Origin: Prevotella sp.
GTDB taxonomy: Bacteria > Bacillota > Clostridia > Christensenellales > UBA1242
Assembly (NCBI GenBank): GCA_023666145.1
Contig: JAMPCO010000003.1
Span: forward strand, 3,027-67,026
Length of the DNA stretch: 64,000 nt
Reading direction: 5' to 3'
Each line of letters opens with the position of its first letter. Position 1 is the first letter of the stretch. Of this stretch, positions 9,003 through 56,355 are shown piece by piece. The notes below the pieces were generated by a model. That model did not search any database. It had not been told where the DNA came from and saw nothing but the letters and a program-made list of their open reading frames with translations. A program made the position numbers and the translations under genes.

Positions 9003-9709
9003 ATAATTTGACTTTTGCGCACAAATTTCCAATCGCCACTGGCTAAATTGCCCAAAGTCAATTTGCCTTCTTGCAAACGGATCAGGTGGGTGACTTGCAG
9101 GCCTAAGGTTTCAAACATTTTGCGAATTTGCCGATTGCGTCCTTCGTGGATGATGACTTGGATTTGGGTACGGTCGTGTTGCAGATAGGAAAATTCCGCG
9201 GGTGCCGTTTGGACACCATCGATCTTGACCCCGTGGGATAAAGTTGCTAATTCGGCCTTGGTGACGGGGCGGTTGACCGTAGCGTGATAGATTTTATTGA
9301 CGTGGGTGGACGGATGCGTTAATTGCTTGGTCAAAGCGCCGTCGTTGGTTAGCAGTAGCAAACCACACGTCTGATAATCCAAACGGCCAACGGGGTACAG
9401 GCGCACCGTTTTTAACAGGGTCGCGTATTGCTTGGGATTTTGGCGAATCACGTCCAAAACGGTGGTTCGACCTTGGGGGTCAAAAGTGGTGGTAACCACG
9501 CCCGCGGGTTTGTTCAATAAAATGTAGACTTTGTCGGTCGGGGGTTGGACGGGGCGGTTGTCGACCGTTACGGTCGCATCATCGGGAATGATGGTGGCTA
9601 AATTGGTAATCACCACCCCATTCAAACGGACACGTCCCGCGGTGATCAACGTTTCCACATGGCGGCGGCTGCCGAGTCCACACAAAGCAAGATATTTGTT
9701 TACGCGCAT
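8999..9709 (-). CDS. rluB: Pseudouridine synthase, RsuA/RluB family with S4 domain
   Basis: The ATG at 9709 gives MRVNKYLALCGLGSRRHVETLITAGRVRLNG (S4 domain). The catalytic motif GRLDYQTCGLLLLTNDG is present. The track ORF's upstream extension is hydrophobic junk. Confidence 0.9.
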   Translation of the reverse strand: MRVNKYLALCGLGSRRHVETLITAGRVRLNGVVITNLATIIPDDATVTVDNRPVQPPTDKVYILLNKPAGVVTTTFDPQGRTTVLDVIRQNPKQYATLLKTVRLYPVGRLDYQTCGLLLLTNDGALTKQLTHPSTHVNKIYHATVNRPVTKAELATLSHGVKIDGVQTAPAEFSYLQHDRTQIQVIIHEGRNRQIRKMFETLGLQVTHLIRLQEGKLTLGNLASGDWKFVRKSQII

Positions 9710-9717
9710 CAAAAAAA

Positions 9718-9726
9718 AGTATATCA
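9718..9726 (-). promoter_or_regulatory. Extended -10 promoter of rluB (leaderless-type)
   Basis: The minus strand reads TGaTATACT, then 8 nt (tttttttg), then ATG (9709). No Shine-Dalgarno is present. Confidence 0.45.
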
Positions 9727-10535
9727 TGAAAATGATGAATATCCTAATCGCAAATGTGCGGAATTTAGAGTCACGGGAATTAAAAGTGTTGGCGGGTGAA
9801 CTGGCAAAAAAACACACGGTGACGGTTTGTTCGCTGGAAGGTCCAGGACGCCAAAAGGGTAATGCGTTTTCTTACGGGGGTTTCCCAATTAAGTTCAAAC
9901 AGATTTCCAATTATACGGTTAACGGCGTGCGGATTCCCGCCTATAAATTTGACGGCACACCCGCGGATATGATTTCGGTCATGTTGGGCAACATTATGCA
10001 ACACCGTAAACCGCATTTGGTGATTTGTGGGATTAGCAACGGGATTTCGTTGGGTACCGACGTCTTTTGCTCATCGAACATTGGAATGGCGATGCAAACC
10101 GCTTTCAATAATATCCCGTGTATTGCGGTTGGCGTGCCAATGCAAATCGGGGGACACAGCGAAGCCGAATTGTTACCGGCGGCACAATTCATCGCGAAAA
10201 ACGTGGAAAAATTTGCCAAAGCCAAATTACCGACCGATACGTTCTTGAATATCACGCTTCCGATTGTCAAAAAATACGACGATTACCAAGGTGTTGGCAT
10301 TTCTTCCATGGATAATTTGACCAAGATGACGCGCTATTTGGAAAAAGTGGATTGCAAAGGCAACAAATACTACTGGGCTCAATTGGTTGAACGCGACAGT
10401 TCCCAAAAAGCCACGGTGGCACCGACCGCGGGCATGGCGTATTTCAAAAAGAATTACATCATTATGGCTCCGTTGACCTATAACTGCACCGACGCCGCCC
10501 ATTTGGCAGAAATGCAAAAGGAGGTCGTCAAATGA
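9726..10535 (+). CDS. SurE-like 5'/3'-nucleotidase paralog 1, catalytic DD motif absent
   Basis: SurE fold markers are present: GTPAD, CGISNGISLG, IAVGV. The N-terminus reads MNILIANVRNLE where SurE has NDDG. Three candidate ATGs lie at 9726, 9732 and 9735. The stop overlaps the next gene (ATGA). Confidence 0.8.
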   Translation: MKMMNILIANVRNLESRELKVLAGELAKKHTVTVCSLEGPGRQKGNAFSYGGFPIKFKQISNYTVNGVRIPAYKFDGTPADMISVMLGNIMQHRKPHLVICGISNGISLGTDVFCSSNIGMAMQTAFNNIPCIAVGVPMQIGGHSEAELLPAAQFIAKNVEKFAKAKLPTDTFLNITLPIVKKYDDYQGVGISSMDNLTKMTRYLEKVDCKGNKYYWAQLVERDSSQKATVAPTAGMAYFKKNYIIMAPLTYNCTDAAHLAEMQKEVVK

Positions 10536-11302
10536 AAATTTTATTGACGAACGAAGCGGGTTGCTTCCACCCTGGGATTGTGGCGTTGGCGAAAGAACTT
10601 TGTAAAGACCACCGTGTGTGTATTGTCGCACCGTTGACGCGACAGAGTGGTGCGGGACATTCTTTAACGGTCGACCAACGTCCGTTGCACGCACAACAAT
10701 GGTTTGTGTTGGACAACGTGAAAATGTGGTCGGTAGATGGTACGCCGTGTGATTGTGTTGCGTTGGCGTTGGATAAATTGTTATTAGACAAACCCGATTT
10801 AATCATTACGGGGATTGACCCCATCAATAATCTGGGCAATTTGATTTACAGCAGTGGGGTGGTCGCGGCCGCCATGGAAGGGGCGATTCAAGGCATCAAA
10901 AGTATTGCCATTAGCGCTGCGATTAAAGCGGAAAAGAAAGAACGGGCTTACCGTCATGTGGCGAAGTATGTTGCGCGTAAGTTAGAATTTTTGGTGACCA
11001 AAACACCTGATTACGGGGTCTTGAACGTGAATTTCCCCGACAAAGTGCAACCTAAGAAAGTGATGCCCGCCGCTTTAACGGACGGAATTTTTATCAACGA
11101 ATACGAAATTGAAGTCAATCCGTTTGGCTCGACGTTTGCTTGGGTTAAAAATCCGTTAATGGAATTCGGCTTGGACGCTTACGAACAAAAAGGCGATTTA
11201 TGTTGGTTGAAACAGGGCTACATTACTTTGACGCCCTTGAAATTGGATTTATTAAAAGGCGAGGCTTTAACGGCCTTACAAAAGGCAGGGATTAAATTAT
11301 GA
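10532..11302 (+). CDS. surE: SurE-like 5'/3'-nucleotidase paralog 2, DD motif replaced by EA
   Basis: MKILLTNEAGCFHPGIVALAKEL compares with canonical MRILLSNDDGxxAPGI. APLTRQSGAGHSLT, GTPCDCV and YSSGVVAAAMEG all align to SurE. GGAGG Shine-Dalgarno lies 8 nt upstream. Confidence 0.88.
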   Translation: MKILLTNEAGCFHPGIVALAKELCKDHRVCIVAPLTRQSGAGHSLTVDQRPLHAQQWFVLDNVKMWSVDGTPCDCVALALDKLLLDKPDLIITGIDPINNLGNLIYSSGVVAAAMEGAIQGIKSIAISAAIKAEKKERAYRHVAKYVARKLEFLVTKTPDYGVLNVNFPDKVQPKKVMPAALTDGIFINEYEIEVNPFGSTFAWVKNPLMEFGLDAYEQKGDLCWLKQGYITLTPLKLDLLKGEALTALQKAGIKL

Positions 11303-15455: not shown

Positions 15456-16489
15456 TTGGCAGAAGTTTCGTCTTCGGTGTGGTGTTTACGATTACGTTTG
15501 CGGCGGGGCGTCTTTTTGGGTTTGAGGGTGTGACGGTTAGGAAACATCCAAACCGCGACCGCGACGCAGGCGACCACCATGACGGCACAAACAATAAAAA
15601 ACGAACCCAGGTTATCCAGGTGGTCAAAGGGTAAATCGACGTTCATACCGTAGATACCCGCAATCAAGGTCGGAATCGCCAAGATGATGGTAACAATGGT
15701 TAACAAACGCATCCGTTCGGCTAATTGGTTACTGACCAGGTTGTTGTAGGTGCTCATGGTTTCGGTCATCAATTCACGTTGCAGGTTACAGGTGGCGAAG
15801 GCTTGCTTGATTTCGACGATAATGTTTTCCAAAGTTTCGACGTCGTCTTCGGTCAAGTTCTTTTGTGCCAGAGACTTTTCTGCTACCACAATGTTTTGGC
15901 GTAAAGACGAAGCAAAGTAAATTAACGCATTTTTCAGACGCATTAACTCACGGAGGTTGGTGTCCGTGTCACGGGATTGCATTAACTTGCTTTCTAAACG
16001 GGTACTGGATTTGTCAATCATGCGCAAATAAGTTTCGTACAGGCTGTGGAAAGCCAATAAGCATTGGTAATTGATTTTTTGACTGTCCAGCAGACTGTTG
16101 GTGCGTAAAGTGCCTTGTTTAATTTCTTGAAATTTGAAATGGTCTTGCAAACAAACGGTCACGGTTAAATTCCCCTTTTGAATCATGGATAACGGGATCG
16201 TGGTGTAAGGCGCATCACTGCTGTGGTCACGTTGCACCACGGGAATGTCAAAGACGGTTAACTTGTAATGGGTGTCGTCGTCTTCGTCCAAGCGCGGACC
16301 TTCTTCGTCGTCCAAGGCCGAACGCACGAAATCTTCGGGAATCTGCAATTCATCAATCACACGGTGGACTTCGATTTCGTTCGGGTTGGTTAATTGCACC
16401 CAAATGCGTTCGTTGGTCGGCAAAGATAATAAATCGTGGGTTTCGATTTTTACATATTTGCCGTCACGGTTGACCATTACGTTTGTCAT
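15452..16489 (-). CDS. corA: CorA-family Mg2+/Co2+ transporter with basic C-terminal tail
   Basis: GMN motif (GIYGMNV) between two C-terminal TM helices. The ATG at 16489 (MTNVMVNRDG) has a promoter 6 nt upstream. The stop overlaps the recN stop by 4 nt (convergent). Confidence 0.9.
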   Translation of the reverse strand: MTNVMVNRDGKYVKIETHDLLSLPTNERIWVQLTNPNEIEVHRVIDELQIPEDFVRSALDDEEGPRLDEDDDTHYKLTVFDIPVVQRDHSSDAPYTTIPLSMIQKGNLTVTVCLQDHFKFQEIKQGTLRTNSLLDSQKINYQCLLAFHSLYETYLRMIDKSSTRLESKLMQSRDTDTNLRELMRLKNALIYFASSLRQNIVVAEKSLAQKNLTEDDVETLENIIVEIKQAFATCNLQRELMTETMSTYNNLVSNQLAERMRLLTIVTIILAIPTLIAGIYGMNVDLPFDHLDNLGSFFIVCAVMVVACVAVAVWMFPNRHTLKPKKTPRRKRNRKHHTEDETSAN

Positions 16490-16495
16490 GTGCTC

Positions 16496-16525
16496 ATTGT
16501 ATGCCTGTTTGTGAAATAAAGTCAA
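16496..16525 (-). promoter_or_regulatory. sigmaA-type promoter of corA (leaderless-type)
   Basis: Minus strand: TTGACT (16525-16520), 18 nt spacer, TACAAT (16501-16496), 6 nt, then ATG (16489). Confidence 0.55.
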
Positions 16526-16545
16526 GAATTGTTGCAAATAATAAC

Positions 16546-16574
16546 TTGCTAATCTTGCGGATTGGTTTTATAAT
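16546..16574 (+). promoter_or_regulatory. sigmaA-type promoter of the large surface-protein gene (leaderless-type)
   Basis: TTGCTA (16546-16551), 17 nt spacer, TATAAT (16569-16574), 7 nt, then ATG (16582). No Shine-Dalgarno. Confidence 0.6.
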
Positions 16575-16581
16575 TATCAAC

Positions 16582-19500
16582 ATGGACAAATTGAAAAGAA
16601 GTTTGAAACGTTTGATTGCACCCGCCATTGTGCTTTTGTTGGTGGCGATTATGGGTGTGTTTAGCCCGGCCGTTTCGGTTGCGGCGGCATTACGCGTGAA
16701 CCCAATGAGCGTGACAGATACCAATCCTTTTACCATTACTAACTTACCCGCACGTACCGTGGAATTGGGTACTGATGCGGCGACGGTCACCGTGCCAACA
16801 ATTAACAACAACGGTGTGGTGGTGTTGAGTCATGCGGGTAAAAACATCAGTACGTTCCCCGATAACAAATATACCTACCAAGAAATCGGTCAATACGAAT
16901 GGCGTTTTTACACCGATGACACCAAAAAAGTGCTATTTGACACTTACACCGTGACCGTAACCGATACCACCTACGGCATGACGATGCCCGACAACGTGGT
17001 GACGGTGGCACCGAAAGATCTCGACCAATTAACCTTACCGTTGCCGTCCACTTACCGTGTGGCGGAAAAAACCGTGGAAGTTACCGAAATCGTTGAAGAC
17101 GAAAGCGGTAAATACGCGGTCGTTACTTTGCAAGACGATGATAATCAAAAAGTAGATTATATCTTACGTGCCAACATTACTTTGGAAAATGAAAATCTGA
17201 ACGACAAAATTACGGCGTTTGACCAAGATGGCATGGTCATTGATTTGAGCGATAATAAGAACACGGGTGTTTTGAAAGTTACTTACCAATTATTGAACGC
17301 CACCAGTCAAAAACTTTTGGTGGCGGTACCTTTGTCCGACATTGAAATTAAAAATATCACTAAAAGCCAAGTGACGTTTGCGAATATCCCGACCGCGCCC
17401 AGCGTGAAAAGTTTAGCCTATTATTCCAGCATCAGTTTAACCGCCCCCACCGCAGATAGTGCTAAAGTCGGTTCGACTTCGTTCAACGTTGAAGCCCAAA
17501 CCACCATCTGCCAAGTGCAATGCTACTTGTACTCCGACGAACCCAGCGATTGGACCGCTAAAAACAGTAAAATTCACAATTTGACCGTGGAAAAAGAGGA
17601 CGGGGCATGGGTCGTGAAAGAAAACGGCACCGCGGTCGACTATTTGGAAATTGATGACTTGACCGTGAAAATTAAAGCGTTGGGTTGGTATCGTTTCCAA
17701 TTCCAAACATCGACTTTGTTTGGTTACCAATTAGACGACGATTTTGACACCGACGACGTCAACATCGAACAAGACCCCAACAATTCCTACGTCCGTTATT
17801 GGAGCGACAGTATCCGTATCTACCGTGACGCCGTTGAACCCAGTTTCGCTTGGGTGGCTAATTACAACGAAGATGACAGCGCGACCATCGAAAATTACAA
17901 TAAAAATTTCAGCACCTTGCAAGAATATGATGTTTATTTGCCGATGACCGAAAAACCCGATGCGACTACGTCACAAAAAATTACCATTAACTATGACGGT
18001 TTAGTCTTGCCTGCAATTTTCCCACACGACAATGCTACTCCGTTCGAAAAAATGAAAGTCACTGCCTTCAATATTGAACAAATCCAAAATGTCGACGGTG
18101 AATCCATTACGTCGAATGATAACTATGTTTACAGTGGCAGTGAAAATGACAGCAAAACTTTTGTTTACGATATGACGGATCCTTTACAAATCCAATTCGT
18201 CATTGACGGCGCTACGCGTGCACAAGGCAACAATGTTGTGCAACTTTACCAACGTGAAGGTTTATACCGTGTACGCATCGTGGTGGAAGAAGAACAACCG
18301 ACTTTTGAAGATGGCACCCGTTACAGCGGTGGTTACGCGAATACCAAAACCAAATATTTGTACTTTTATGTCGACAGTGATTACAAATGCGGTACGGACG
18401 GTGAAAATTCGCCTGTGATTGACACCAACAATGTGTTCCAAGTCAGCGATGTTTATTTGTGGGAAGGTCACACCTTCGATTTCCGTATCCCGACCGTGAC
18501 CGATGCCCATACGCCCGCCGATGACATCCAAATTGATTATTATTTGGTCAATGCTGATGATCAAAGCAAAACATATAAATTGGATTACAATGTTAACGCG
18601 TCACACGTTACGGTTGATTTGGATGATTTGGACGGATTCGATACCAAAGATTTGTTGACGGACGTCGATTACTACATTTATGCGGTGGCACGCAATTTCA
18701 ACGGAATGCAAGCCAAATTGAAAGTAGAAGCGAATCCTGTCATCAAAGATGAAAATGTCGCCGATAACAAATATTTCGAGGAAGCCTTGTTTAGCAAATT
18801 AGACACTGACGAAATCGCACAATATGGTTATGCGTGGAAACGTGCCGCGTTTACCATTTACGCGACCAAAGACAGCAGTAAAGCCGATGCAGACTTCACG
18901 GTTACACCCAACAACGACAATTCCTACAAGGCGGGTGAAAAAGTGGTTTTCGACAGCATCAAAGTAGCATGGAGCGATAATACCGTCGTGGACGGACAAA
19001 TGACCGTCGCCGTGTATTTAATGAAAGACAACGGTACGCGTGTGCCAGTCAACATGGTAAACAGCAGTAACAGTTCCGCGGAAATTGTCAGTGCGGTGGC
19101 GTTTAACGCCAGCAGTTACGAAGCCACGGATTGGAGTTTCACTCCTGGTGTCGGTGGTACCTACATCCTGGTGATCACCGCCAAAGAACACGCCAGCAGT
19201 CAAATCCAAACCTGCGTGAAAACCATTGAAGTTGCATCCAGTGGTGATTGGAACATTACTCCGTTAAGTGTGTCTCCTGCCGCGGCCACCAATTACACGA
19301 TTGATGCCACGATCAGTTTAGGGGAAAGCGCCGTGTTGCCCAATTATGTGGTCAGTAAAGACGAACAAGGTGGCACAAAATATTTTGCGAAAAATCGTCG
19401 TTTGTATCCATACGACGATAACGGCAATGTTACCGACGGACCCGAAGGTTACTATACCATTACCGTGATGGGGGTCAACGATCCGAATTGTATCATCGGT

Positions 19501-20979
19501 AACAAATTTGTCCCGAACAAAACGGGAACTTACATTTTCCAATATACTTTTACGAAAGACAATGTCTTGAAAACCACCAATTATGTGGTGCAGGTTAACG
19601 ACAGCAGCAGTGGTGTTGCCAGCATCCGTATGGGCGAAGAATACGACGACAAAACTGTTTTGCCCAATGCCGATGCACCAACAGACGCTGATAGTGGAAA
19701 AACTACTAACAAGGTTGGTGACTTCACCTACGTTGTCGAAACTCGTACCGCAGACAATCCAGCGTACGCGATTATCTTACCAGAATTTATCGCGTCGAAC
19801 TATGGTGCCGCAACTGATTTCGTGGTCGACAGTGCGTACCTGTATGATTATTTGGAACCGATATACGAAGAAAAAGAAGGCAAAATGGAAATTACGGGTT
19901 ATCTGTATCCCGCGATTGCGATCCCGATGCCGAACGTCATTGCCGATACCACCAGTTCCGACGAAGTAGAAATCACCGTGCAAAAGAGCGGCAGCAGTAA
20001 CTACTTGGTTTCCAGCAAAAAATTGAATGCCGGTGGCAGCAGTAACAAAGCCAGTGTGATTACCCAAATTGATGGTTACTATGTTTTCCGCCCCGATGGT
20101 AAATTCTCCAAAGATTGCAAGGATACAGAAAAGTACAATCCCCAAACTTATCAACTTGCCGCGGTCAGTACCAGCGGTGCAACGGGCGTTTACACCGTGT
20201 CTTACAAAACCAATAGTACCAGCGTGAACTTCAACGTGACCATTGGTAACTTGGAAAATGGGGAATTGGCTTTCAATGAAGGCTTCTTAACCTACAACAA
20301 TGACGACGGCAAAGGGGCGCAAGCAATTACCGATACGGGCGACACCAACAACGTGGTGATTGAAAAAGTCGACGGTCATCGTTATGTTACCATTGATTTG
20401 TCCAAACTTTATTTTACGGGCAACAGTGATATGCAAGACTTGATCAATGAGGGACCGAATCCCGCTAACGACAACGATGGTTGCCACCCCGACCATTTGG
20501 ATACGGAATACCTTTATAAAAATGTGAGTGTTACGGTCAGTTACGAAGGTAGTTCGTTTATCAGTACCAGCGATTGGTCAGATGCGGATGATGAAACCAA
20601 AGCGCTTAAAATTTATGGTGACCAAGGTGACGGTTACAAATATCAATACAAATTTGATTTAACTGGTGGCAGCGGTACCTACAAAGTCAACGTTTCCATG
20701 GTTAACAAATACACTGGTAATACGATTTCGAATTCGATTGAATTTACGATTGATGTGGATGCAACCAACAAAAACACCAACCTGAACACGGTTTGGGGTA
20801 TTATCCTGGTGGTGTTGTCACTTGGTCTGTTGGCGGGTATGGTCTTCTACTTCGTGAAAACTGCACGGGCAACCCGTTTCGTTGATGCGCCCAGCGCCGT
20901 CAAGGATAAAAACAAAGTTAAGAAGGACAAACCTGTCGCCCCAAAAGCGGTGGAGGCACCCCAAGAAGATGTTAAATAA
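16582..20979 (+). CDS. Large (1466 aa) secreted, C-terminally membrane-anchored surface protein built of Ig/PKD-like beta-sandwich modules
   Basis: The ATG at 16582 gives the signal peptide MDKLKRSLKRLIAPAIVLLLVAIMGVFSPAVSVAAA. The G-x-Y-x-hydrophobic strand motif recurs (GQYEWRFY, GWYRFQFQ, GLYRVRIV, GTYILVIT, GTYIFQYT, GVYTVSYK, GTYKVNVS). The C-terminus has a TM helix (VWGIILVVLSLGLLAGMVFYFV) and a Lys-rich tail. No LPXTG, SLH or choline-binding motifs were seen. Confidence 0.85.
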   Translation: MDKLKRSLKRLIAPAIVLLLVAIMGVFSPAVSVAAALRVNPMSVTDTNPFTITNLPARTVELGTDAATVTVPTINNNGVVVLSHAGKNISTFPDNKYTYQEIGQYEWRFYTDDTKKVLFDTYTVTVTDTTYGMTMPDNVVTVAPKDLDQLTLPLPSTYRVAEKTVEVTEIVEDESGKYAVVTLQDDDNQKVDYILRANITLENENLNDKITAFDQDGMVIDLSDNKNTGVLKVTYQLLNATSQKLLVAVPLSDIEIKNITKSQVTFANIPTAPSVKSLAYYSSISLTAPTADSAKVGSTSFNVEAQTTICQVQCYLYSDEPSDWTAKNSKIHNLTVEKEDGAWVVKENGTAVDYLEIDDLTVKIKALGWYRFQFQTSTLFGYQLDDDFDTDDVNIEQDPNNSYVRYWSDSIRIYRDAVEPSFAWVANYNEDDSATIENYNKNFSTLQEYDVYLPMTEKPDATTSQKITINYDGLVLPAIFPHDNATPFEKMKVTAFNIEQIQNVDGESITSNDNYVYSGSENDSKTFVYDMTDPLQIQFVIDGATRAQGNNVVQLYQREGLYRVRIVVEEEQPTFEDGTRYSGGYANTKTKYLYFYVDSDYKCGTDGENSPVIDTNNVFQVSDVYLWEGHTFDFRIPTVTDAHTPADDIQIDYYLVNADDQSKTYKLDYNVNASHVTVDLDDLDGFDTKDLLTDVDYYIYAVARNFNGMQAKLKVEANPVIKDENVADNKYFEEALFSKLDTDEIAQYGYAWKRAAFTIYATKDSSKADADFTVTPNNDNSYKAGEKVVFDSIKVAWSDNTVVDGQMTVAVYLMKDNGTRVPVNMVNSSNSSAEIVSAVAFNASSYEATDWSFTPGVGGTYILVITAKEHASSQIQTCVKTIEVASSGDWNITPLSVSPAAATNYTIDATISLGESAVLPNYVVSKDEQGGTKYFAKNRRLYPYDDNGNVTDGPEGYYTITVMGVNDPNCIIGNKFVPNKTGTYIFQYTFTKDNVLKTTNYVVQVNDSSSGVASIRMGEEYDDKTVLPNADAPTDADSGKTTNKVGDFTYVVETRTADNPAYAIILPEFIASNYGAATDFVVDSAYLYDYLEPIYEEKEGKMEITGYLYPAIAIPMPNVIADTTSSDEVEITVQKSGSSNYLVSSKKLNAGGSSNKASVITQIDGYYVFRPDGKFSKDCKDTEKYNPQTYQLAAVSTSGATGVYTVSYKTNSTSVNFNVTIGNLENGELAFNEGFLTYNNDDGKGAQAITDTGDTNNVVIEKVDGHRYVTIDLSKLYFTGNSDMQDLINEGPNPANDNDGCHPDHLDTEYLYKNVSVTVSYEGSSFISTSDWSDADDETKALKIYGDQGDGYKYQYKFDLTGGSGTYKVNVSMVNKYTGNTISNSIEFTIDVDATNKNTNLNTVWGIILVVLSLGLLAGMVFYFVKTARATRFVDAPSAVKDKNKVKKDKPVAPKAVEAPQEDVK

Positions 20980-29757: not shown

Positions 29758-31305
29758 ATGATTCAAGTAGTCAATGTATCTTTGCAATATGGCAAACGGG
29801 TTTTGTTCAAAGATGTTAATTTGAAATTTTTGCCAGGGGAATGTTACGGCATTATCGGTGCCAACGGGGCGGGCAAATCAACGTTTTTAAAAATTTTATC
29901 GGGCGAAATTACCCCGAATAAAGGGGAAGTGGTGGTTGGTAAAAACCAACGGATTTCGACCCTGGCGCAAAACCAAAATGCGTTTGATGATTTATCCGTG
30001 ATTAATACTGTTATTGGCGGGCACCAACGTTTGGCAGAAATCGTCGCGTTAAAAGAAAAATATTATGCGTTGCCCACCATGACCGAAGCGCAGGGTAATG
30101 AATTGGGCGCGTTGGAAGCCGAATTTGCCGAATTGGACGGTTGGGATGCCGACAGCAACGCGCGGATCATGTTGTCGGGTTTGGGCGTCAGCGAAGAATT
30201 TCACGACCAACAAATGAAAGACTTGGATGCGAAACTGAAAGTTAAAGTTTTGTTGGCGCGGGCTTTATTTGGTAATCCCGATATTTTAATTTTGGACGAA
30301 CCAACCAATAATTTGGATTTGGCGGGTACGCATTGGTTGGAAGAATTTTTGTTGGAATTTAAAAACATTACCATTATTGTGTCGCACAATCGTCATTTTT
30401 TGAACCAAGTTTGTACGCACATTTGCGATGTTGACTTTAACCAAATCAATATGTTTGTGGGGAACTACGATTTTTGGTACGAAACCAGCCAATTATTGTT
30501 GAAGCAACAAAAGGAAGCCAACAAGAAAGCCGAAGCGCGTGCACAAGAATTGAAAGACTTTATTGCACGGTTTTCCGCGAACGCCAGTAAATCACGCCAA
30601 GCCACCAGTCGTAAAAAAGAATTGGAAAAATTGACGATTGAAGACATCAAACCGTCATCGCGTAAATATCCGTACATCAATTTCGAATGTGCGCGTGAAC
30701 CAGGTAACGAAATTTTGGCGGTGGAAAATTTGACCGTCAACGGCTATTTCCGCAATGTCTCTTTCCGCGTTAACAAGGGGGAAAAAATCGCTTTTTTAAC
30801 CGATAAAAGTGTGCGCATGGACAAATTGTTTAACTGTATCATGGGCATTGAAAAAGCCGACAGCGGTACCGTCACCATCGGCAAGACCATTACGACTTCG
30901 TATTTACCCGCGGACTACCGCAGTTATTTCGAAGGGGTCAATTTGAATTTGTTAGATTGGTTGAAACAGTATTCCCAAGACACTAACGAAACCTTTATCC
31001 GCAGTTGGTTAGGTCGGATGTTGTTTTCGGGGGAAGAAGCCTTAAAAAAAGCCAGTGTTTTGTCGGGTGGGGAAAGAGTGCGTTGTATGTTAGCGAAAAC
31101 CATGTTGGAACAAGGTAATCTGTTGATTTTGAACGAACCCACCAACCATTTGGATTTGGAAAGCATTACCGCCTTAAACCAAGGGATGATGCGTAGTAAG
31201 GCCGTAATGTTGTTTTACACCAGTGATGAAGAAATTATCGATACGGTGGCAACCCGCGTGATTGAAATTACTGCCGACAAAATCCACGACCGCGTTTTAG
31301 TTTAA
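29758..31305 (+). CDS. ABC-F family ATPase (YbiT/YkpA-like) with one degenerate ATP site
   Basis: Two ABC domains joined by a charged linker. NBD1 has GANGAGKST, ILILDEPTNNLD and SHNRHFLN. NBD2 has signature LSGGE, but its Walker A position reads FLTDKSVRMDKL and its Walker B reads LLILNEP. Confidence 0.92.
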   Translation: MIQVVNVSLQYGKRVLFKDVNLKFLPGECYGIIGANGAGKSTFLKILSGEITPNKGEVVVGKNQRISTLAQNQNAFDDLSVINTVIGGHQRLAEIVALKEKYYALPTMTEAQGNELGALEAEFAELDGWDADSNARIMLSGLGVSEEFHDQQMKDLDAKLKVKVLLARALFGNPDILILDEPTNNLDLAGTHWLEEFLLEFKNITIIVSHNRHFLNQVCTHICDVDFNQINMFVGNYDFWYETSQLLLKQQKEANKKAEARAQELKDFIARFSANASKSRQATSRKKELEKLTIEDIKPSSRKYPYINFECAREPGNEILAVENLTVNGYFRNVSFRVNKGEKIAFLTDKSVRMDKLFNCIMGIEKADSGTVTIGKTITTSYLPADYRSYFEGVNLNLLDWLKQYSQDTNETFIRSWLGRMLFSGEEALKKASVLSGGERVRCMLAKTMLEQGNLLILNEPTNHLDLESITALNQGMMRSKAVMLFYTSDEEIIDTVATRVIEITADKIHDRVLV

Positions 31306-31817
31306 TTACGTTCGTTGGGATTATGGCGGGGACTAACTCTCGGCATCGGTTGCGTGTCGTGCCGTTTTTCCGAAATCGGCGCACGATGGTTTCCAGGTTT
31401 TCTGTCATGGTTACGGGGCGCACCGTCGTATAACGCGGGGATAGGTTCTTCCGCATGGAAACGGGGACGTTCTTGGTCGTCGTTTGGGTTTGGTTCTGCT
31501 GTTTGGTCGGGATAAATCTCCAAAGTACGCGGTTGGTCATCCACTGGTTGATAGTTTGCTACGTGGGCGACCACAGGGGTATTTTGCCTTTCCAATTGAT
31601 GGATTTGGCTCTTTAATTGGCGATTATGTAACGCCGTGGCACCCAACAGGCTGCTGGTAACGGCTACGGCCAAAGCCATAACCGACATCGTAATTCCAGT
31701 CAAAATTTTGTGGCGCTGTCGTTGACGATGTTCATCCGCCACGGCGCTGTTGGAATTTTCCACCACGACGTTTCCTTGGTAATTTCTTTGGTGCGATTGA
31801 GTTGTAAATGATTGCAT
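31302..31817 (-). CDS. Hypothetical single-pass membrane protein, Pro/Arg/His-rich C-terminal region
   Basis: 171 aa. GGAGGTG Shine-Dalgarno lies 7 nt upstream of the ATG at 31817. One TM helix (ILTGITMSVMALAVAVTSSLLGA), followed by a short coiled segment and a disordered tail. A sigmaG-like promoter lies upstream. Confidence 0.7.
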   Translation of the reverse strand: MQSFTTQSHQRNYQGNVVVENSNSAVADEHRQRQRHKILTGITMSVMALAVAVTSSLLGATALHNRQLKSQIHQLERQNTPVVAHVANYQPVDDQPRTLEIYPDQTAEPNPNDDQERPRFHAEEPIPALYDGAPRNHDRKPGNHRAPISEKRHDTQPMPRVSPRHNPNERN

Positions 31818-31836
31818 GATTGTTCACCTCCGAGGA

Positions 31837-31866
31837 TAGTATCTACCGCCAGAGATAAAATATTCA
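31837..31866 (-). promoter_or_regulatory. Forespore sigmaG-type promoter candidate
   Basis: Minus strand: TGAATA (31866-31861), 17 nt spacer, GATACTA (31843-31837). The Bacillus sigmaG consensus is TGAATA-N17/18-CATACTA. A 19-nt leader with GGAGGTG Shine-Dalgarno follows. Confidence 0.5.
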
Positions 31867-31870
31867 CGCC

Positions 31871-32134
31871 TTAGTAAATTTTACAGCAGCAATCGTTGCA
31901 ACCGTGGTCTTGTTCCGGTTTTTCACAAGGCGACGGTTCTTTTTTCTCTTGGCAGACACATTCAAAGCGTTTTTCGCGACATTCGCATTTTTCTTCACGA
32001 TGTTCGCAGCGGTCTTCACATTTGTTTTCGCACTTGCATTCACAGCGGTTAACTGGCTTGCAGGTGTTGTGACAACGGCAGCAACGGAAAACCCAGCAGA
32101 ACAGGTCGCCAACAGTTGGACATTGATTACACAT
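31871..32134 (-). CDS. Cysteine-rich small protein (87 aa, 21 Cys)
   Basis: Perfect AGGAGG Shine-Dalgarno 8 nt upstream of the ATG at 32134. The sequence is MCNQCPTVGDLFCWVFRCCRCHNTCKPVNRCECKCENKCEDRCEHREEKCECREKRFECVCQEKKEPSPCEKPEQDHGCNDCCCKIY. Two other long ORFs overlapping here have no Shine-Dalgarno. Confidence 0.8.
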   Translation of the reverse strand: MCNQCPTVGDLFCWVFRCCRCHNTCKPVNRCECKCENKCEDRCEHREEKCECREKRFECVCQEKKEPSPCEKPEQDHGCNDCCCKIY

Positions 32135-32192
32135 CTTTGGTACCTCCTACGTACAGCATACGCGCACAGAAAAAAGAATGTGCCATCCCGCG

Positions 32193-32978
32193 TTAGGCGA
32201 CGGTGAGCGCGTGTTGGCGGCTGTGTTCCGCAATGACAGCCGTGGTGATATGGTAGGCCAGAATTTGTTGGTAAGTCGTGGATTGCAGCAATTGGCGTTC
32301 GTTGGCATTGGTCAAAAATCCGCATTCAATTAAAACGGCGGGGCAAGGCGAGTGTTCGACTAAATTGAAATCGGTGGGTTTAGCGGTTTTGTAAATTGGT
32401 AAGCCGCTGTCGTTAAATTGGTTTTGAATGGCGGTGGCGTAGGCTTGACTGCCCGTGGTTTCGTTGGCGTAAAAACATTGTAAACCACTGACCGAAGTTA
32501 ACGGGTAGGTATTTTGGTGAATTGAAATCACCAGGTCGGGGTTAAGACTGCGAATCTTTGCGCGACGTTTAGCCATGTCTTCCACTTTTTTATTACGGGC
32601 GTAAGGCGAATTCAGACTCTCACTGTCAACACGGGTCAAGGAAACTGCGCAACCGTGGTTACGTAATTCTTGCGCCAAAACTTGGACAATTTGTAAATTT
32701 AATCCCGCCTCACTGACCCCGTCAACGCAGGCACCGTTGTCGAAACCACCGTGTCCCGCGTCCAAAACCACATGAAACTGCTCTGGGGCAATGACCGCGG
32801 TGGAACCTTGCAACGCATCAATCCACAGCCCTACGCCCAGCACAACAAAACACAAACTAATTGCTAAGTAACGGATTTCTATGTATATTAAAATTGCATG
32901 CGTAAAATGCGGGAATACCACTTCCAAAGGGGGTTGGCCAAAGATTTGCTTGTGGCCACTTTCTTTTTTAGTTTGCAA
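32193..32978 (-). CDS. cwlD: Germination-specific N-acetylmuramoyl-L-alanine amidase CwlD (maximal ORF; true start unresolved, probably 32855-32894)
   Basis: Amidase_3 motifs are present: VVLDAGHGGFDNGA, VISIHQN, AVLIECGFLTN. An N-terminal signal-anchor (RYLAISLCFVVLGVGLWI) matches CwlD. The track start (TTG at 32978) would overlap the divergent ABC gene and its promoter. Confidence 0.85.
   Translation of the reverse strand: MQTKKESGHKQIFGQPPLEVVFPHFTHAILIYIEIRYLAISLCFVVLGVGLWIDALQGSTAVIAPEQFHVVLDAGHGGFDNGACVDGVSEAGLNLQIVQVLAQELRNHGCAVSLTRVDSESLNSPYARNKKVEDMAKRRAKIRSLNPDLVISIHQNTYPLTSVSGLQCFYANETTGSQAYATAIQNQFNDSGLPIYKTAKPTDFNLVEHSPCPAVLIECGFLTNANERQLLQSTTYQQILAYHITTAVIAEHSRQHALTVA
32861..32889 (+). 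promoter_or_regulatory. sigmaA-type promoter of the ABC half-transporter pair (leaderless-type)
   Basis: TTGCTA (32861-32866), 17 nt spacer, TATATT (32884-32889), 8 nt, then ATG (32898). It lies inside the 5' end of the cwlD reading frame on the other strand. Confidence 0.55.
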
Positions 32979-52320: not shown

Positions 52321-52743
52321 TTAGTCATAATCATCTTGGTTTTTCAACAATTCATTCATGGTGGCACTGTCGTTAACGGTGGTATTGCCACGTAAATCGC
52401 GGTAATGGTACAGGTCATGCAAAATGGTTAAATCAGGTTCACCGTTGAAGTAAATAGCGGTGCAATGCGCCAAAGACACTGCGTCCAACATTTCCCGTAC
52501 TTTGGTACCTTGGTAAGTCACGGTTTCGGATTCAAGACTGTCTGAGCCAGCCGATGGTTTGAATTTTTGCGCCGTGATTTGTATTTCGTCGCCTGTACGT
52601 TCGATGGTCATAGCCGTGATGACCGTGGTAGAACGGACTTGTAAATCGTGTCCGATCGTATTGGGCAAAAGGATTAATACTAACGCCAACAATAAAATAA
52701 AAAACTTTTTGCCCCACAAATAATGCAACGTGTGTTTTATCAT
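52321..52743 (-). CDS. Short GerxC-position protein of the germinant-receptor operon (140 aa, N-terminal anchor, no lipobox Cys)
   Basis: Third gene of the gerA-like operon, with a 4-nt overlap with the B gene. N-terminal hydrophobic segment FFILLLALVLILL. Canonical GerAC lipoproteins are about 370 aa. Confidence 0.6.
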   Translation of the reverse strand: MIKHTLHYLWGKKFFILLLALVLILLPNTIGHDLQVRSTTVITAMTIERTGDEIQITAQKFKPSAGSDSLESETVTYQGTKVREMLDAVSLAHCTAIYFNGEPDLTILHDLYHYRDLRGNTTVNDSATMNELLKNQDDYD

Positions 52744-53612
52744 TGGCGGTTTAACCCCCGTTTAATTAAAGTGACGACGGCCACCAATTGGACCCCGAAA
52801 CGCAAGACTAACGCCGCCATCATGGCTATGGCAATCACCCAATCCAAACTGCCCGTATTGGTAATGAATTGGGCAGCGGTGGTCATGTCAATTAACCCCA
52901 TTGTTTGGTGTTGGCTTAAAGTCCCGAACAACAACACAAACAAGACCATGAAAGCCACGTAACCAATTCCGCACAACAGCGCCGTTAAATTCAAACGGCA
53001 TAAATCGCGGTTGGTTTTGCGTGTTTCGGAGCCGAACGCCAACACAAAAGCCGCCGTTTCAAAAAAGCACAAGTGCATGGTGGTGGCGGGCACAATTTGC
53101 CCAGCGTTACCGCGCACTAAGTCGTGCCAATCCACTTGGATATTGTACAGGGTTGGCACAATGGCGAGAATTAAACCAAACGCGAACAAGAGCCAGAGAA
53201 TTTCGCCTGCCCGAAAAACGGCACGTGGTTGACGGGTTAAAAAGAAGCACCCCAACGCCACCATAGTAATCACAAACACGGTGATACCTAAATTCGTAAA
53301 GAAATCGGTGTAGGATAATTGATAAACTTGGAGGGCAGTAATCGCGATTTCCCCGACCACCACGGGGAGCAGTACCCAACAAACAGCGCGGAAAAATTTG
53401 TTTTGGTTGTCGGTAAATTTTAAGATTATGCTGGCGATTGCCACCAAAACTAATTCAAAAATCACGCCAAGCAGCGCGGAAACCCACGCCCAATTGCCTG
53501 TGGCACTGGCCAGTCCTGATGGTAAAGTCAGGAGTTTGATACTGGTGCTGTACAAAAAGTAGCCAAAACACAATTGACGGAGACTGATGGCTTGGTGGTG
53601 TCGGTTATTCAT
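52740..53612 (-). CDS. Spore germination protein, GerAB-type (APC-superfamily membrane subunit)
   Basis: The ATG at 53612 gives MNNRHHQAISLRQLCFGYFLYSTSIKLLTLP, typical of GerAB N-termini. The protein is polytopic. It overlaps the A-subunit stop by 8 nt. Confidence 0.82.
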   Translation of the reverse strand: MNNRHHQAISLRQLCFGYFLYSTSIKLLTLPSGLASATGNWAWVSALLGVIFELVLVAIASIILKFTDNQNKFFRAVCWVLLPVVVGEIAITALQVYQLSYTDFFTNLGITVFVITMVALGCFFLTRQPRAVFRAGEILWLLFAFGLILAIVPTLYNIQVDWHDLVRGNAGQIVPATTMHLCFFETAAFVLAFGSETRKTNRDLCRLNLTALLCGIGYVAFMVLFVLLFGTLSQHQTMGLIDMTTAAQFITNTGSLDWVIAIAMMAALVLRFGVQLVAVVTLIKRGLNRQ

Positions 53613-54741
53613 GGCTATCCTCCATGGGGCGTTGACGAATAGGGTTGCGGTTGGGAATACTGCGCGGGCGTTCAATCATTTCGGGGAAGGGAACTTTTTG
53701 CAACGCATCTTTTTGGTCATCGGGGATGTACGGAGTAAATGGTGCTAAATAGGGTGAACCGTAGTGATCAATGCCTGCGGTGTAAACCAACAAGACGACG
53801 AAAGCCGCTACCAAACCGTACAAGCCTAAGAAACCACCAATTAAACAAAAAATGAAACGCAGGACACTGATTTGGGCCAACATATTCGGCATGATGTAGG
53901 AAGTGATACCCGAAATGGCCACGACCAAAACCGTGGGGGCGGAAAGCAATCCTACCGAAGCCGCCACTTCACCCACCACAAACACCGCAATGATACTGGT
54001 CGCTGAACCGAGATGTTTAGGCATGATTAACGTCGCTTCGTAAATGATTTCGAAAAGCAGAAGGACGATAATCATTTCGATAATCGGTGGAAATAAATCG
54101 TTTTCGGTGGAGTTCGCAATCGTGGCTAAAGTGTTCAACGGGATAATTGACAAATGGTATAAACTGACCGCTAAGAAAAAACCAGGCAGCAAGACCGCAA
54201 TCAACCCACCCAACAGGCGGATGGTGCGTTTCATTGTGACGCCTGCATTACCGCTGTAATAATCATTGCTGTTTTGGATGTTTTCCAAAAACAAATGCGG
54301 AATGGTCAACACGACGGGGCTGCCGTCCACAAAAATGGCCACGCGCCCTTCCAGCAGTCGGGATGCTACGATATCGGGTTTTTCTTCGGAAGCGGCGGCT
54401 TTGTACAAGGCAATGCGGTCAGGATTCAAACATTCACTGATGTAGGAAGAATCGATAATCCCGTCGCAATCAATTTTTTTTAAGCGCGCTAAAACGGATT
54501 GCACCACGGCCGGCGTCGCAATGCTGTCAATGTAAGCCAGTTGCACTTTGGTTTGGGTGTATTTGCCAATCGTTAAAGTTACAAATTGCAAATCCTGGTT
54601 TTTAATGCGTTTGGTGATTAAAGCCACATTGGTATCAATATTTTCCACAAAACCTTCGCGTGGACCCAAGAGCACTTGACCAGTGGGTGGTTCAGTTAAA
54701 CCACGTTGTGGTGGTTGCTGCGGTTGGTTTGGTGCTGCCAT
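53605..54741 (-). CDS. Spore germination protein, GerAA-type subunit (N-terminally short)
   Basis: GPREGFVENIDTNVALITKRIK..., KPDIVASRLLEGRVAIFVDGSPVVLTIP and DYY, followed by 5 TM helices, match the GerA family. I prefer the start at 54741 (MAAPNQ), because the ATG at 54792 would overlap the divergent lysK start. Confidence 0.82.
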   Translation of the reverse strand: MAAPNQPQQPPQRGLTEPPTGQVLLGPREGFVENIDTNVALITKRIKNQDLQFVTLTIGKYTQTKVQLAYIDSIATPAVVQSVLARLKKIDCDGIIDSSYISECLNPDRIALYKAAASEEKPDIVASRLLEGRVAIFVDGSPVVLTIPHLFLENIQNSNDYYSGNAGVTMKRTIRLLGGLIAVLLPGFFLAVSLYHLSIIPLNTLATIANSTENDLFPPIIEMIIVLLLFEIIYEATLIMPKHLGSATSIIAVFVVGEVAASVGLLSAPTVLVVAISGITSYIMPNMLAQISVLRFIFCLIGGFLGLYGLVAAFVVLLVYTAGIDHYGSPYLAPFTPYIPDDQKDALQKVPFPEMIERPRSIPNRNPIRQRPMEDSHE

Positions 54742-54752
54742 ACGGATATTAT

Positions 54753-54781
54753 TTGCATTTTCACAAAAAAAATTATATATT
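54753..54781 (+). promoter_or_regulatory. sigmaA-type promoter of class-I lysyl-tRNA synthetase gene (leaderless-type)
   Basis: TTGCAT (54753-54758), 17 nt spacer, TATATT (54776-54781), 5 nt, then ATG (54787). There is no room for a T-box leader. Confidence 0.6.
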
Positions 54782-54786
54782 GCATC

Positions 54787-56355
54787 ATGCATTGGAGTTA
54801 TGAATTAGCCGCCGCAATATTGCAAAAATATCCTGACCGTGAAGAATACGTGGTTGCCAGTGGTATTTCCCCGTCGGGCAGTGTGCACATCGGTAACTAC
54901 CGTGAATTTGTGACACAGTATTACGTGGCGAAGGCTTTGCAAAGTATGGGCAAAAAAGTGCGTGAAATTTTTTCTTGGGACGAATTTGACCGTTTTCGTA
55001 AAGTACCCAAAAATTTCCCTGTCGCTTACGCGGTGCACGTGGGAAAACCCTATGTCGATATTCCGTCGCCGTTTAGTGCGGGCGAAAGCAGTGCTAAATA
55101 TTTTGAACGGGAATTTGAAGGTGCCTTGCAAAAATTGGGCATGAACGAAATTCCCGTGCAGATGATTTACCAAGCCGACGAATACCGTAGCGGTCGTTAC
55201 GGGGTGGCGATTGCCGAAGCCATAAAAAAACGTCAACAAATTTATGACATTATCATGTCGTTCAAAACTCAGGACGGGGACGAAGGCGACCGCGCAAATT
55301 ATTATCCGATTACGATTTATTGTCCTATTTGTGGCAAAGACGATACCCAGGTTTTAAGTTTTGATGCCAAGACCGATGTGCTGACTTACCAATGTCGTTG
55401 CGGACACCAACACAGCGTGGACGTTAAAACCGCTAATAACATCAAATTGGTTTGGAAAGTGGACTGGCCGATGCGTTGGAAAGCCGAAAACGTCTGCTTT
55501 GAAGCCGCGGGGATTGACCACCACAGTGAGGGGGGCAGTTATGACGTCAGTTCACGCATCGCCCGTGAAATTTGGGGCATTGAACCGCCCGTGTCGACTT
55601 GCTATGCGTGGGTCGGCATTCGCGGTGTCGGTAATATGCACAGTAGTACGGGCATCAACATTACACCGAACCAGTTATTGCAAGTTTATGAACCCGAAAT
55701 TCTGCGTTACTTGTACGCGAAGTATCCTGTGGGTGACGCTTTCGATTTTGGTTACGATGATACGATTATTCGCCACTACATGGAATTTGACCGCAATTTA
55801 GAAAAGTATTTGGCGCACGACCCCAGTTTGCCTGAATACGACAAAGTTGTTTACGATTTGTGTTTATTCCCCAAAAGTCAGGGTAACCGTGTCAGTTTCA
55901 GTACTTTGGCGACCGTGGCACCGTTGACCGGTTTCAACCAAGCCTTAACTCTCAAAATGTTAAAGCAGGCTGGCATTACCGCACTGGGCAATTTTGAATC
56001 CCGTTTCGCAAAAGTCAAATATTGGCTGGAAAATTATCAACCCGACCGTATTTACCATTTGTTACCCACGTTTAACCAAGCGTACTACCATACTTTAGAT
56101 GACACCCAAAAGGCCGTCTTGCAACAGTTAGCGGCATTTTTAACCACACCCCACACGGAAAGCGAAATCCAAACTTACTTGTACCAAATCATCAATGATC
56201 CCAATTTGTCCAAAAAAGAAAACCAACAGCGACAACAAGTTTATTTCAAAATCTTTTACAATATGCTGTTTGGGCGCGATGCTGGCCCGCGTTTGTACTT
56301 ATATTTAGCCGTGGCAAATCCGCAAGATTACTTGAAACTCTTGCAAGAAAAATAA
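54787..56355 (+). CDS. lysK: Lysyl-tRNA synthetase, class I (archaeal-type)
   Basis: ASGISPSGSVHIGNYREF (the HIGH-region variant typical of class I LysRS). Size and overall pattern fit class I LysRS. The KMSKS-equivalent region reads GNMHSSTG. Confidence 0.88.
   Translation: MHWSYELAAAILQKYPDREEYVVASGISPSGSVHIGNYREFVTQYYVAKALQSMGKKVREIFSWDEFDRFRKVPKNFPVAYAVHVGKPYVDIPSPFSAGESSAKYFEREFEGALQKLGMNEIPVQMIYQADEYRSGRYGVAIAEAIKKRQQIYDIIMSFKTQDGDEGDRANYYPITIYCPICGKDDTQVLSFDAKTDVLTYQCRCGHQHSVDVKTANNIKLVWKVDWPMRWKAENVCFEAAGIDHHSEGGSYDVSSRIAREIWGIEPPVSTCYAWVGIRGVGNMHSSTGINITPNQLLQVYEPEILRYLYAKYPVGDAFDFGYDDTIIRHYMEFDRNLEKYLAHDPSLPEYDKVVYDLCLFPKSQGNRVSFSTLATVAPLTGFNQALTLKMLKQAGITALGNFESRFAKVKYWLENYQPDRIYHLLPTFNQAYYHTLDDTQKAVLQQLAAFLTTPHTESEIQTYLYQIINDPNLSKKENQQRQQVYFKIFYNMLFGRDAGPRLYLYLAVANPQDYLKLLQEK

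Follow-up and report, generated by a model that had tools for sequence, protein, structure and literature searches.

The stretch of DNA analyzed here, 64,000 nucleotides in its entirety and hereafter called the window, carries on its minus strand a small open reading frame (ORF) at 31871..32134, which starts with an ATG at 32134-32132, ends with a TAA at 31873-31871 and encodes an 87-residue protein (MCNQCPTVGDLFCWVFRCCRCHNTCKPVNRCECKCENKCEDRCEHREEKCECREKRFECVCQEKKEPSPCEKPEQDHGCNDCCCKIY). Twenty-one of the 87 residues (24.1%) are cysteines. These are located at positions 2, 5, 13, 18, 19, 21, 25, 31, 33, 35, 39, 43, 50, 52, 59, 61, 70, 79, 82, 83 and 84 and form CxCxC, CxxxC and CCC arrays, the CxCxC and CxxxC arrays being flanked by lysine and glutamate; the protein also contains three phenylalanines, one tryptophan, one tyrosine and three histidines. 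Its cysteine density is an extreme outlier, far above background: window ORFs of at least 200 residues average 1.3% cysteine, and the second most cysteine-rich of the 695 window ORFs of at least 30 residues reaches 15% over 33 residues. Tandem Repeats Finder detected no DNA repeat in 31800..32200, and the KCE periodicity of the protein is present at the protein level only, being too degenerate at the DNA level. A Shine-Dalgarno sequence, AGGAGG (32143..32148, minus strand), is located 8 nt 5′ of the ATG, with TACCAAAG as the spacer. The maximal Kyte-Doolittle mean over any 19 residues is 0.72, indicating that the protein lacks a transmembrane helix or signal-peptide core, and residues 7 to 21 form a moderately amphipathic hydrophobic stretch. 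Thus, the basic description in the original prediction, namely the quoted sequence of 87 residues with 21 cysteines (24%), a perfect AGGAGG at good spacing and no signal peptide or transmembrane helix, was reproduced in full from the minus-strand ORF.

Immediately upstream is a gene for an N-acetylmuramoyl-L-alanine amidase (32193..~32876, minus strand). The encoded protein matches the Amidase_3 family (Pfam, E=8e-38) and carries an N-terminal hydrophobic membrane anchor. The longest ORF reaches 32978, but comparison of the N-termini places the true start probably close to 32876. By far the best NCBIfam model is that of CwlD (TIGR02883), with 143.5 bits and E=8e-42; as this score is below the curated cut-off of 221.55, we refer to the amidase as CwlD-like rather than as a certified equivalog. 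The CwlD-like amidase gene has no Shine-Dalgarno sequence, its likely start position is occupied by ATC, ATA, ATG or GTG, depending on the locus, and in locus L010 an in-frame stop is found five codons upstream of that start. Next to it, a divergently transcribed ABC exporter gene (ATG at 32898, plus strand) is preceded by a TATATT -10-like hexamer that ends 9 nt before the ATG. The amidase and the divergent exporter genes may be leaderless or use noncanonical starts (window 32860..32900).

The downstream neighbor (31302..31817, minus strand) encodes a 171-residue single-pass membrane protein of no named family, which we call TM171. Its N-terminus, MQSFTTQSHQRNYQGNVV, is conserved, while its tail evolves fast. 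Across its orthologues (L001-L021) the N-terminus reads invariantly MQ[STN][FY]TTQxHQRNYQGNVV, and most members of the main clade end in PIS[DNE]xxH[DE]xxP[LMI]P, a motif missing in L005, L006, L011-L013 and L020. TM171 is restricted to this clade, with 31 relatives, none of which is named; the TM171 protein of the window is 100% identical to MCM1404041.1, "MAG: hypothetical protein NC133_00830 [Prevotella sp.]", encoded on a 70.7-kb contig. Upstream of the TM171 gene is the footprint GAATA-N17-GATACTA (31837..31865, minus strand). Alignment of the TM171 upstream regions (A3) revealed that G[ACGT]ATA-N17-[CAG]AT[AG][AC]TA is conserved, the distant loci having GTATA or GGATA-N17-CATAATA or CATGATA (specifically, GTATA-N17-CATAATA in L011, with -10 boxes CATAATA in L012 and CATGATA in L013). 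The forespore σG/σF consensus of Bacillus subtilis is GnATR-N17-18-CATnnTA, and on this basis we take the TM171 footprint to be of the forespore σG/σF type. The consensus of Clostridioides difficile σG/σF is very similar to that of B. subtilis (PMC3789822). As a calibration, the putative GerA operon of the window was inspected for a forespore motif, and none was clear in the short region that it shares with lysS. The original prediction placed cwlD upstream and a gene with a σG-like promoter downstream, both on the same strand; the positions and the σG-type motif hold, the latter being conserved across loci, while the amidase can be named only CwlD-like.

The order amidase, cysteine-rich gene, TM171 gene is kept in every locus recovered. 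In each locus these genes are part of a syntenic block of ~12 kb that also encodes SecA, two ABC exporters, an ABC-F protein, a protein with a weak DUF6273 match and an RND transporter, and a genome scan together with the most divergent members revealed the same extended synteny throughout. When the amidase alignment was used to scan metagenomes for distant cwlD loci that might contain analogous cysteine-rich ORFs, all loci obtained (L015-L021) belonged to this clade. Because the whole ~12 kb is syntenic, adjacency to cwlD does not constitute independent evidence of a functional link. Co-occurrence with cwlD and sporulation genes, suggested in the original prediction as a check, was thus found within this clade, in that the amidase adjoins the cysteine-rich gene in every locus, yet this linkage counts for little.

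Further genes of the window specify SpoIIE and a GerA-family germinant receptor protein, which makes the organism a spore former. The GerA-family spore germination protein (53605..54792, minus strand; Pfam E=1.6e-113) is followed by a 311-residue multipass membrane protein (52740..53675, minus strand) and a 140-residue ORF (52321..52743, minus strand), neither of which has a family match; together, the genes in 52321..54792 may constitute a divergent gerA-type germinant receptor operon. The presence of SpoIIE, GerA and the CwlD-like amidase, along with relatives labeled "Clostridia bacterium", suggests that the Prevotella label of the source record is probably a binning or taxonomy error. Elsewhere, the window contains a 1498-residue ORF (16483..20979, plus strand) with no Pfam or NCBIfam match, two consecutive overlapping genes for SurE-domain proteins (9531..10535 and 10532..11302, both plus strand) and a gene for a class I lysyl-tRNA synthetase (54706..56355, plus strand; PF01921, E=2.6e-106), the listed start of which is probably overextended. 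Class I lysyl-tRNA synthetases are uncommon among bacteria.

Searches for relatives of the cysteine-rich protein revealed a small family. Among 5.8 billion protein clusters, a word-indexed search identified 11 relatives with E values from 1e-25 to 2e-8, all unnamed and all from metagenomes or "Clostridia bacterium" metagenome-assembled genomes (MAGs), and an exhaustive profile search over 1.84 billion representatives yielded only seven clusters, all belonging to this family and none a known coat protein. With loci added from genome, metagenome and assembly collections, the family comprises ~17 distinct orthologues of 42 to 94 residues, found at the same position, between a CwlD-like amidase and the single-pass membrane protein, in related Clostridia MAGs. 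The window protein has no match in Pfam (E<=0.1) or NCBIfam, a Pfam search with 12 family members at E<=10 yielded nothing beyond isolated noise hits of single members, and a profile search of the PDB returned nothing at E<=10. One NCBI entry of the family carries the label "hypothetical protein". By these sequence searches, the family is tiny, lineage-restricted, unnamed and essentially undescribed.

Could the ORF be spurious, having stayed open by chance in a region of low complexity? The exact 87-residue protein is absent from a collection of 15 billion proteins and has no family match, as would be the case for such a frame. However, that collection does contain its neighbor MCM1404041.1, which comes from the same NCBI record, and this suggests that the cysteine-rich gene was not annotated in the source record. 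Moreover, of the six frames, only the cysteine-rich one lacks stops in each of the 13 loci tested, and the length differences among the orthologues are all in frame, which together indicate that the gene is real and under selection. The two alternative ORFs that overlap it (153 residues on the same strand and 100 residues on the opposite strand) both carry stops in most orthologues. In every related locus the gene is conserved in frame with an invariant Shine-Dalgarno sequence and start codon, and the N-terminal motifs are invariant, as set out below; the extreme cysteine content likewise speaks against a chance frame. The evidence from the reading frame, the upstream footprint and the family comparison thus effectively rules out a nonfunctional ORF, to which we assign a negligible probability. 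The claims of the original prediction that bear on this point, namely that the gene is very likely translated and that no named family has this pattern, were supported; the homologue search that it suggested found relatives, and the frame that it quoted, not an overlapping one, is the conserved one.

Comparison of the family members revealed two conserved ends that flank a divergent core. The N-terminal module (residues 1 to 25 of the window protein) has the pattern M-x(1-3)-C-P-T-[VI]-G-[DE]-[LFA]-[FIV]-x4-[RN]-C-x2-C-x3-C and carries aromatic and hydrophobic residues (F, W, V, F). The C-terminus has the motif C-x4-C-[GKP]-[IF]-x, seen as DCxCK[IF][YF] or C[LM]xGAC[GP]Ix and, in the window protein, as CNDCCCKIY. 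Many members also contain a central motif, [FY]EC[VF]C[QR]EKKEP, of which the window version is FECVCQEKKEP. Between these conserved parts, the core is hypervariable in sequence and variable in length. In the sub-clade of the window protein it is built of [KR]CE[NDH] repeats that differ in copy number, whereas other members (L008-L010 and L016-L019) have CPC/KPxC or CQC/N-rich tracts. Thus, the charged, repeat-like core noted in the original prediction is a feature of the window's own sub-clade, being replaced elsewhere by sequence rich in C, Q, N and P. Despite this complete turnover from KCE repeats to C/Q/N/P-rich sequence, and although the core cysteines cannot be aligned between sub-clades, the cysteine fraction is held at 17 to 24% across members; the smallest has 42 residues, seven of them cysteines. 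Across loci, the cysteine-rich proteins are 40 to 70% identical, compared with 73 to 96% for comparable neighboring proteins (SecA, 79 to 91%; the amidase, 73 to 86%; ABC-F, 93 to 96%). The lower identity combined with the retained cysteine fraction shows that the protein evolves fast under a compositional constraint. AlphaFold2, supplied with a 12-sequence alignment, produced no confident fold (pLDDT of 41, pTM of 0.15), the model containing a single short helix at residues 7 to 15; from this low-confidence model, the protein is predicted to be intrinsically disordered.

These properties bear directly on the resemblance to metallothioneins drawn in the original prediction. According to this explanation, the protein would be a metal-thiolate protein that stores Zn or Cu, or detoxifies Cd or Cu, during sporulation or in the spore, its CxC and CxxxC arrays acting as a metal sponge. 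As in metallothioneins (SmtA/BmtA and the eukaryotic proteins), the window protein is small and very cysteine-rich, at 24%, with CxC, CxxC and CC motifs and with CxCxC and CxxxC arrays flanked by Lys and Glu; the high cysteine content is retained in all members, and the lack of a predicted fold is what would be expected of an apo-metallothionein, which has no stable structure. The likeness is confined to composition, however. Neither the Pfam metallothionein models, including that of the bacterial SmtA type, nor the DUF326 copper-storage model matched any of 12 members at E<=10, and no relative was found in the PDB. Metallothioneins have few or no aromatic residues and cysteine positions that are conserved across the family; here, the N-terminal module is aromatic and hydrophobic, the whole protein contains five aromatics along with three histidines, the core cysteines are not conserved between sub-clades, and one member consists of only 42 residues with seven cysteines. 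In addition, the Glu-rich core of the window's sub-clade is atypical of metallothioneins, the gene is not specifically associated with any metal-responsive regulator or transporter, and the promoter setting, described below, is of a sporulation type rather than a metal-responsive one. The proposed resemblance therefore did not hold beyond composition, and we consider a metallothionein-like role possible but rather unlikely. A more specific version, in which the family would be a sporulation-specific bacterial metallothionein-like protein that serves as a hypervariable thiolate "sponge" of the mother cell in strictly anaerobic gut Clostridia, for Zn/Cu loading of the spore surface or for redox/electrophile buffering and not solely for cross-linking, appears to us unlikely. 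If true, it would represent a new class of prokaryotic metallothionein, under developmental rather than metal-responsive control, and would be more novel than a spore coat role. A copper storage protein of the Csp1/Csp3 type, a four-helix bundle lined with cysteines, was rejected, given the lack of a DUF326 match and a model with one short helix at that low pLDDT.

The conserved genomic position and the cysteine spacing of the N-terminal module raise the alternative that the protein is an accessory or regulatory partner, either delivering Zn to, or regulating, the Zn-dependent CwlD-like amidase or acting as a CsfB/Gin-like Zn-ribbon regulator of a σ factor. The gene invariably lies between those for the amidase and TM171 and, in L011 and L012, overlaps the amidase stop by 8 nt; also, the arrangement C2xxC5...C18xxC21 resembles a pair of zinc knuckles. 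Yet C2 is missing in L016 (MNNPCP) and L017 (MSHHCP), and C18 is missing in P0008 (RAGSC), P0010 and P0011, so that neither cysteine is invariant, and a hypervariable core is unlike that of a specific binding partner. The protein also has no export signal, while the catalytic domain of the anchored CwlD would face the cortex space, and the synteny is global and not specific to these genes. We therefore regard such a partnership as quite unlikely. A CsfB/Gin-type anti-σ factor in particular was rejected, as the two invariant CxxC knuckles are not found in a family in which several members lack C2 or C18.

A conserved N-terminus followed by a hypervariable cysteine-rich remainder is also the layout of a RiPP precursor, in which the former would be the leader and the latter the core peptide, exported by the adjacent ABC transporters; indeed, two ABC exporter genes are located divergently beside the amidase gene. 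These exporters, though, carry only ABC_membrane and ABC_tran domains, and no radical-SAM, lanthipeptide, cyclodehydratase or peptidase-C39 domain was found within ±6 kb in five Pfam-annotated loci or among the annotated ORFs of the window. The putative leader is itself cysteine-rich, the C-terminus is conserved as well, and the promoter footprint is of a sporulation type. A RiPP precursor is, therefore, very improbable.

In an alignment of the 70 nt upstream of the cysteine-rich gene from 13 loci (A2), two conserved blocks stand out in otherwise variable DNA, AC(A)-N17-C[G/A]TATG[C/A]T, so that the order in the direction of transcription is an invariant ACA, a variable 17-nt spacer, C[G/A]TATG[C/A]T, the Shine-Dalgarno block GGAGGTA, which is invariant in the 13 loci, and the ATG. 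In the window, the -35-like box is CACA (32179..32182, minus strand; ACA corresponding to the invariant A20, C21 and A22 of A2) and the -10-like box is CGTATGCT (32155..32162, minus strand), with 17 nt between the AC of the former and the C of the latter. The invariant positions of the -10-like box are C39, T41, A42, T43 and T46, while G44 reaches a conservation of at least 90%. In L011-L013 the amidase gene ends later, which places the -35 block inside the end of the amidase coding sequence, and there too it is found at a near-constant 17 to 18 nt from the -10; L009 uses a separate intergenic AACATT.

Promoters recognized by σE and σK have a two-block architecture (PMC517825). In C. difficile, σE and σK share a very similar -10, for example CATATAAT, and are distinguished at the -35, which is ATA for σE and AC for σK; both consensus sequences are similar to their B. 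subtilis counterparts (PMC3789822). Set against the mother-cell σ -10, CATA...T / CATATAAT, the -10-like box CGTATGCT is of the same type, save that position 2 is G in most loci where the consensus has A (it is A in L004 and L011). The AC at the -35 combined with a mother-cell-type -10 gives the footprint a σK-type architecture, and we infer that it is probably a promoter of the σE/σK class, most consistent with σK. A degenerate form of the motif occurs twice in the window against ~4 matches expected and is thus not significant in a single sequence, meaning that the promoter assignment draws on how well the footprint is conserved and on where it lies. Transcription from the predicted start would give a short leader, of just ~15 nt. 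Neither a σ70-type promoter nor an intrinsic terminator was found among the amidase, cysteine-rich and TM171 genes. A conserved RNA hairpin in the leader around the Shine-Dalgarno sequence was considered and rejected, since the GTAC...GTAC pairing of the window is not kept in orthologues. The original prediction had proposed a spore coat or forespore component; the conserved σK-type footprint that the gene has for itself favors the coat and speaks against the forespore.

Taken together, the mother-cell footprint, the strong Shine-Dalgarno sequence, the absence of an export signal, the predicted disorder, the conserved terminal modules, the core constrained only in its cysteines and the narrow phyletic range lead us to favor, with moderate confidence, a late mother-cell, cysteine-rich protein of the spore coat or exosporium. 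In the mechanism that we envisage, the gene would be switched on in the mother cell at a late stage of sporulation, driven by its own σK-type promoter, and efficiently translated from the consensus Shine-Dalgarno sequence into a small, intrinsically unstructured cysteine-rich protein in the cytoplasm. The N-terminal module of ~25 residues, with its short amphipathic or hydrophobic helix and its cysteines, and the C-terminal cysteine motif would dock onto the assembling spore surface. The cysteine-rich core of variable length would then supply dense thiols for intermolecular disulfide, possibly metal-bridged, cross-links that harden and insolubilize the coat or exosporium. A core that keeps its cysteine content but not its sequence is what would be expected of a cross-linking structural protein, as opposed to a defined metal site or an enzyme, and the lack of a transmembrane helix or signal peptide is consistent with deposition from the mother-cell cytoplasm. 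Several points count against this reading, among them the deviating -10 position, the nonsignificant motif count and the short leader noted above, as well as the lack of sequence homology to any known coat protein in the profile search. In addition, the window protein contains 24% cysteine compared with ~9% in known coat and exosporium proteins, placing it nearer to metallothioneins, and strict anaerobes have little oxidant for disulfide formation until the spore is released. The organisms that carry the gene are uncultured and represented by MAGs.

By analogy, the closest described counterparts are CdeC and CdeM, the cysteine-rich exosporium morphogenetic proteins of C. difficile, which have (putative) σK promoters directly upstream, no conserved domain, no signal peptide and a lineage-restricted distribution and contain short cysteine-containing repeats for which disulfide cross-linking has been proposed (PMC6101409). 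The family described here similarly combines cysteine-rich repeats or clusters with the lack of a signal peptide or other domain and with a narrow phyletic range, and the C-terminal cysteine cluster of the window protein, CNDCCCKIY, can be compared with CNECC and CNCCNCCRK in CdeC/CdeM (PMC6101409). The proteins differ in size (405 residues in CdeC and 161 in CdeM vs. 42 to 94 here) and in cysteine content (~9% each vs. 17 to 24%, a two- to threefold enrichment), and CdeC and CdeM have no detectable homology to the cysteine-rich family, to which the CPTVG N-terminal module is unique. Further analogues are CotY/CotZ of the B. subtilis crust and ExsY/CotY of the B. cereus group exosporium, which are cysteine-rich, mother-cell-made cross-linkers of the outermost layer (PMC6101409). 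Those proteins are folded, ~150 to 160 residues long and members of a conserved family, whereas the window protein is much smaller, predicted to be disordered and hypervariable, and has no detectable homology to them. The members of sub-clade B (CKPVCPCQPKPKC..., CQCSCQCGCQCGC) resemble, in addition, keratin-associated proteins. In the ultra-high-sulfur keratin-associated proteins, as in the "keratin-like" cystine-rich coat fraction, low-complexity Cys/Pro/Gln repeats of conserved composition form a disulfide matrix. Keratin-associated proteins are eukaryotic and unrelated in sequence to the cysteine-rich family, and the likeness is one of analogy only. A lineage-specific, cysteine-rich spore surface protein is of a known kind; the cysteine density and the hypervariable core are what is unusual.

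How gut spore formers resist, persist and interact with the host is determined by the surface layers of the spore, whose components show poor conservation and, beyond Bacillus and C. difficile, have hardly been described. Our data reveal that an uncultured lineage of Clostridia from the herbivore and human gut has its own rapidly evolving small protein, with up to 24% cysteine and with control signals of the late mother-cell type. The gene apparently escaped annotation in the source record, which illustrates how small ORFs are overlooked. If the protein is a cross-linker of the coat or exosporium, the gene would offer a way to track the diversity of spore surfaces among MAGs, and the principle of CdeC, CdeM and CotY, that of lineage-specific cysteine-rich morphogenetic proteins, would gain a new and far more extreme version.
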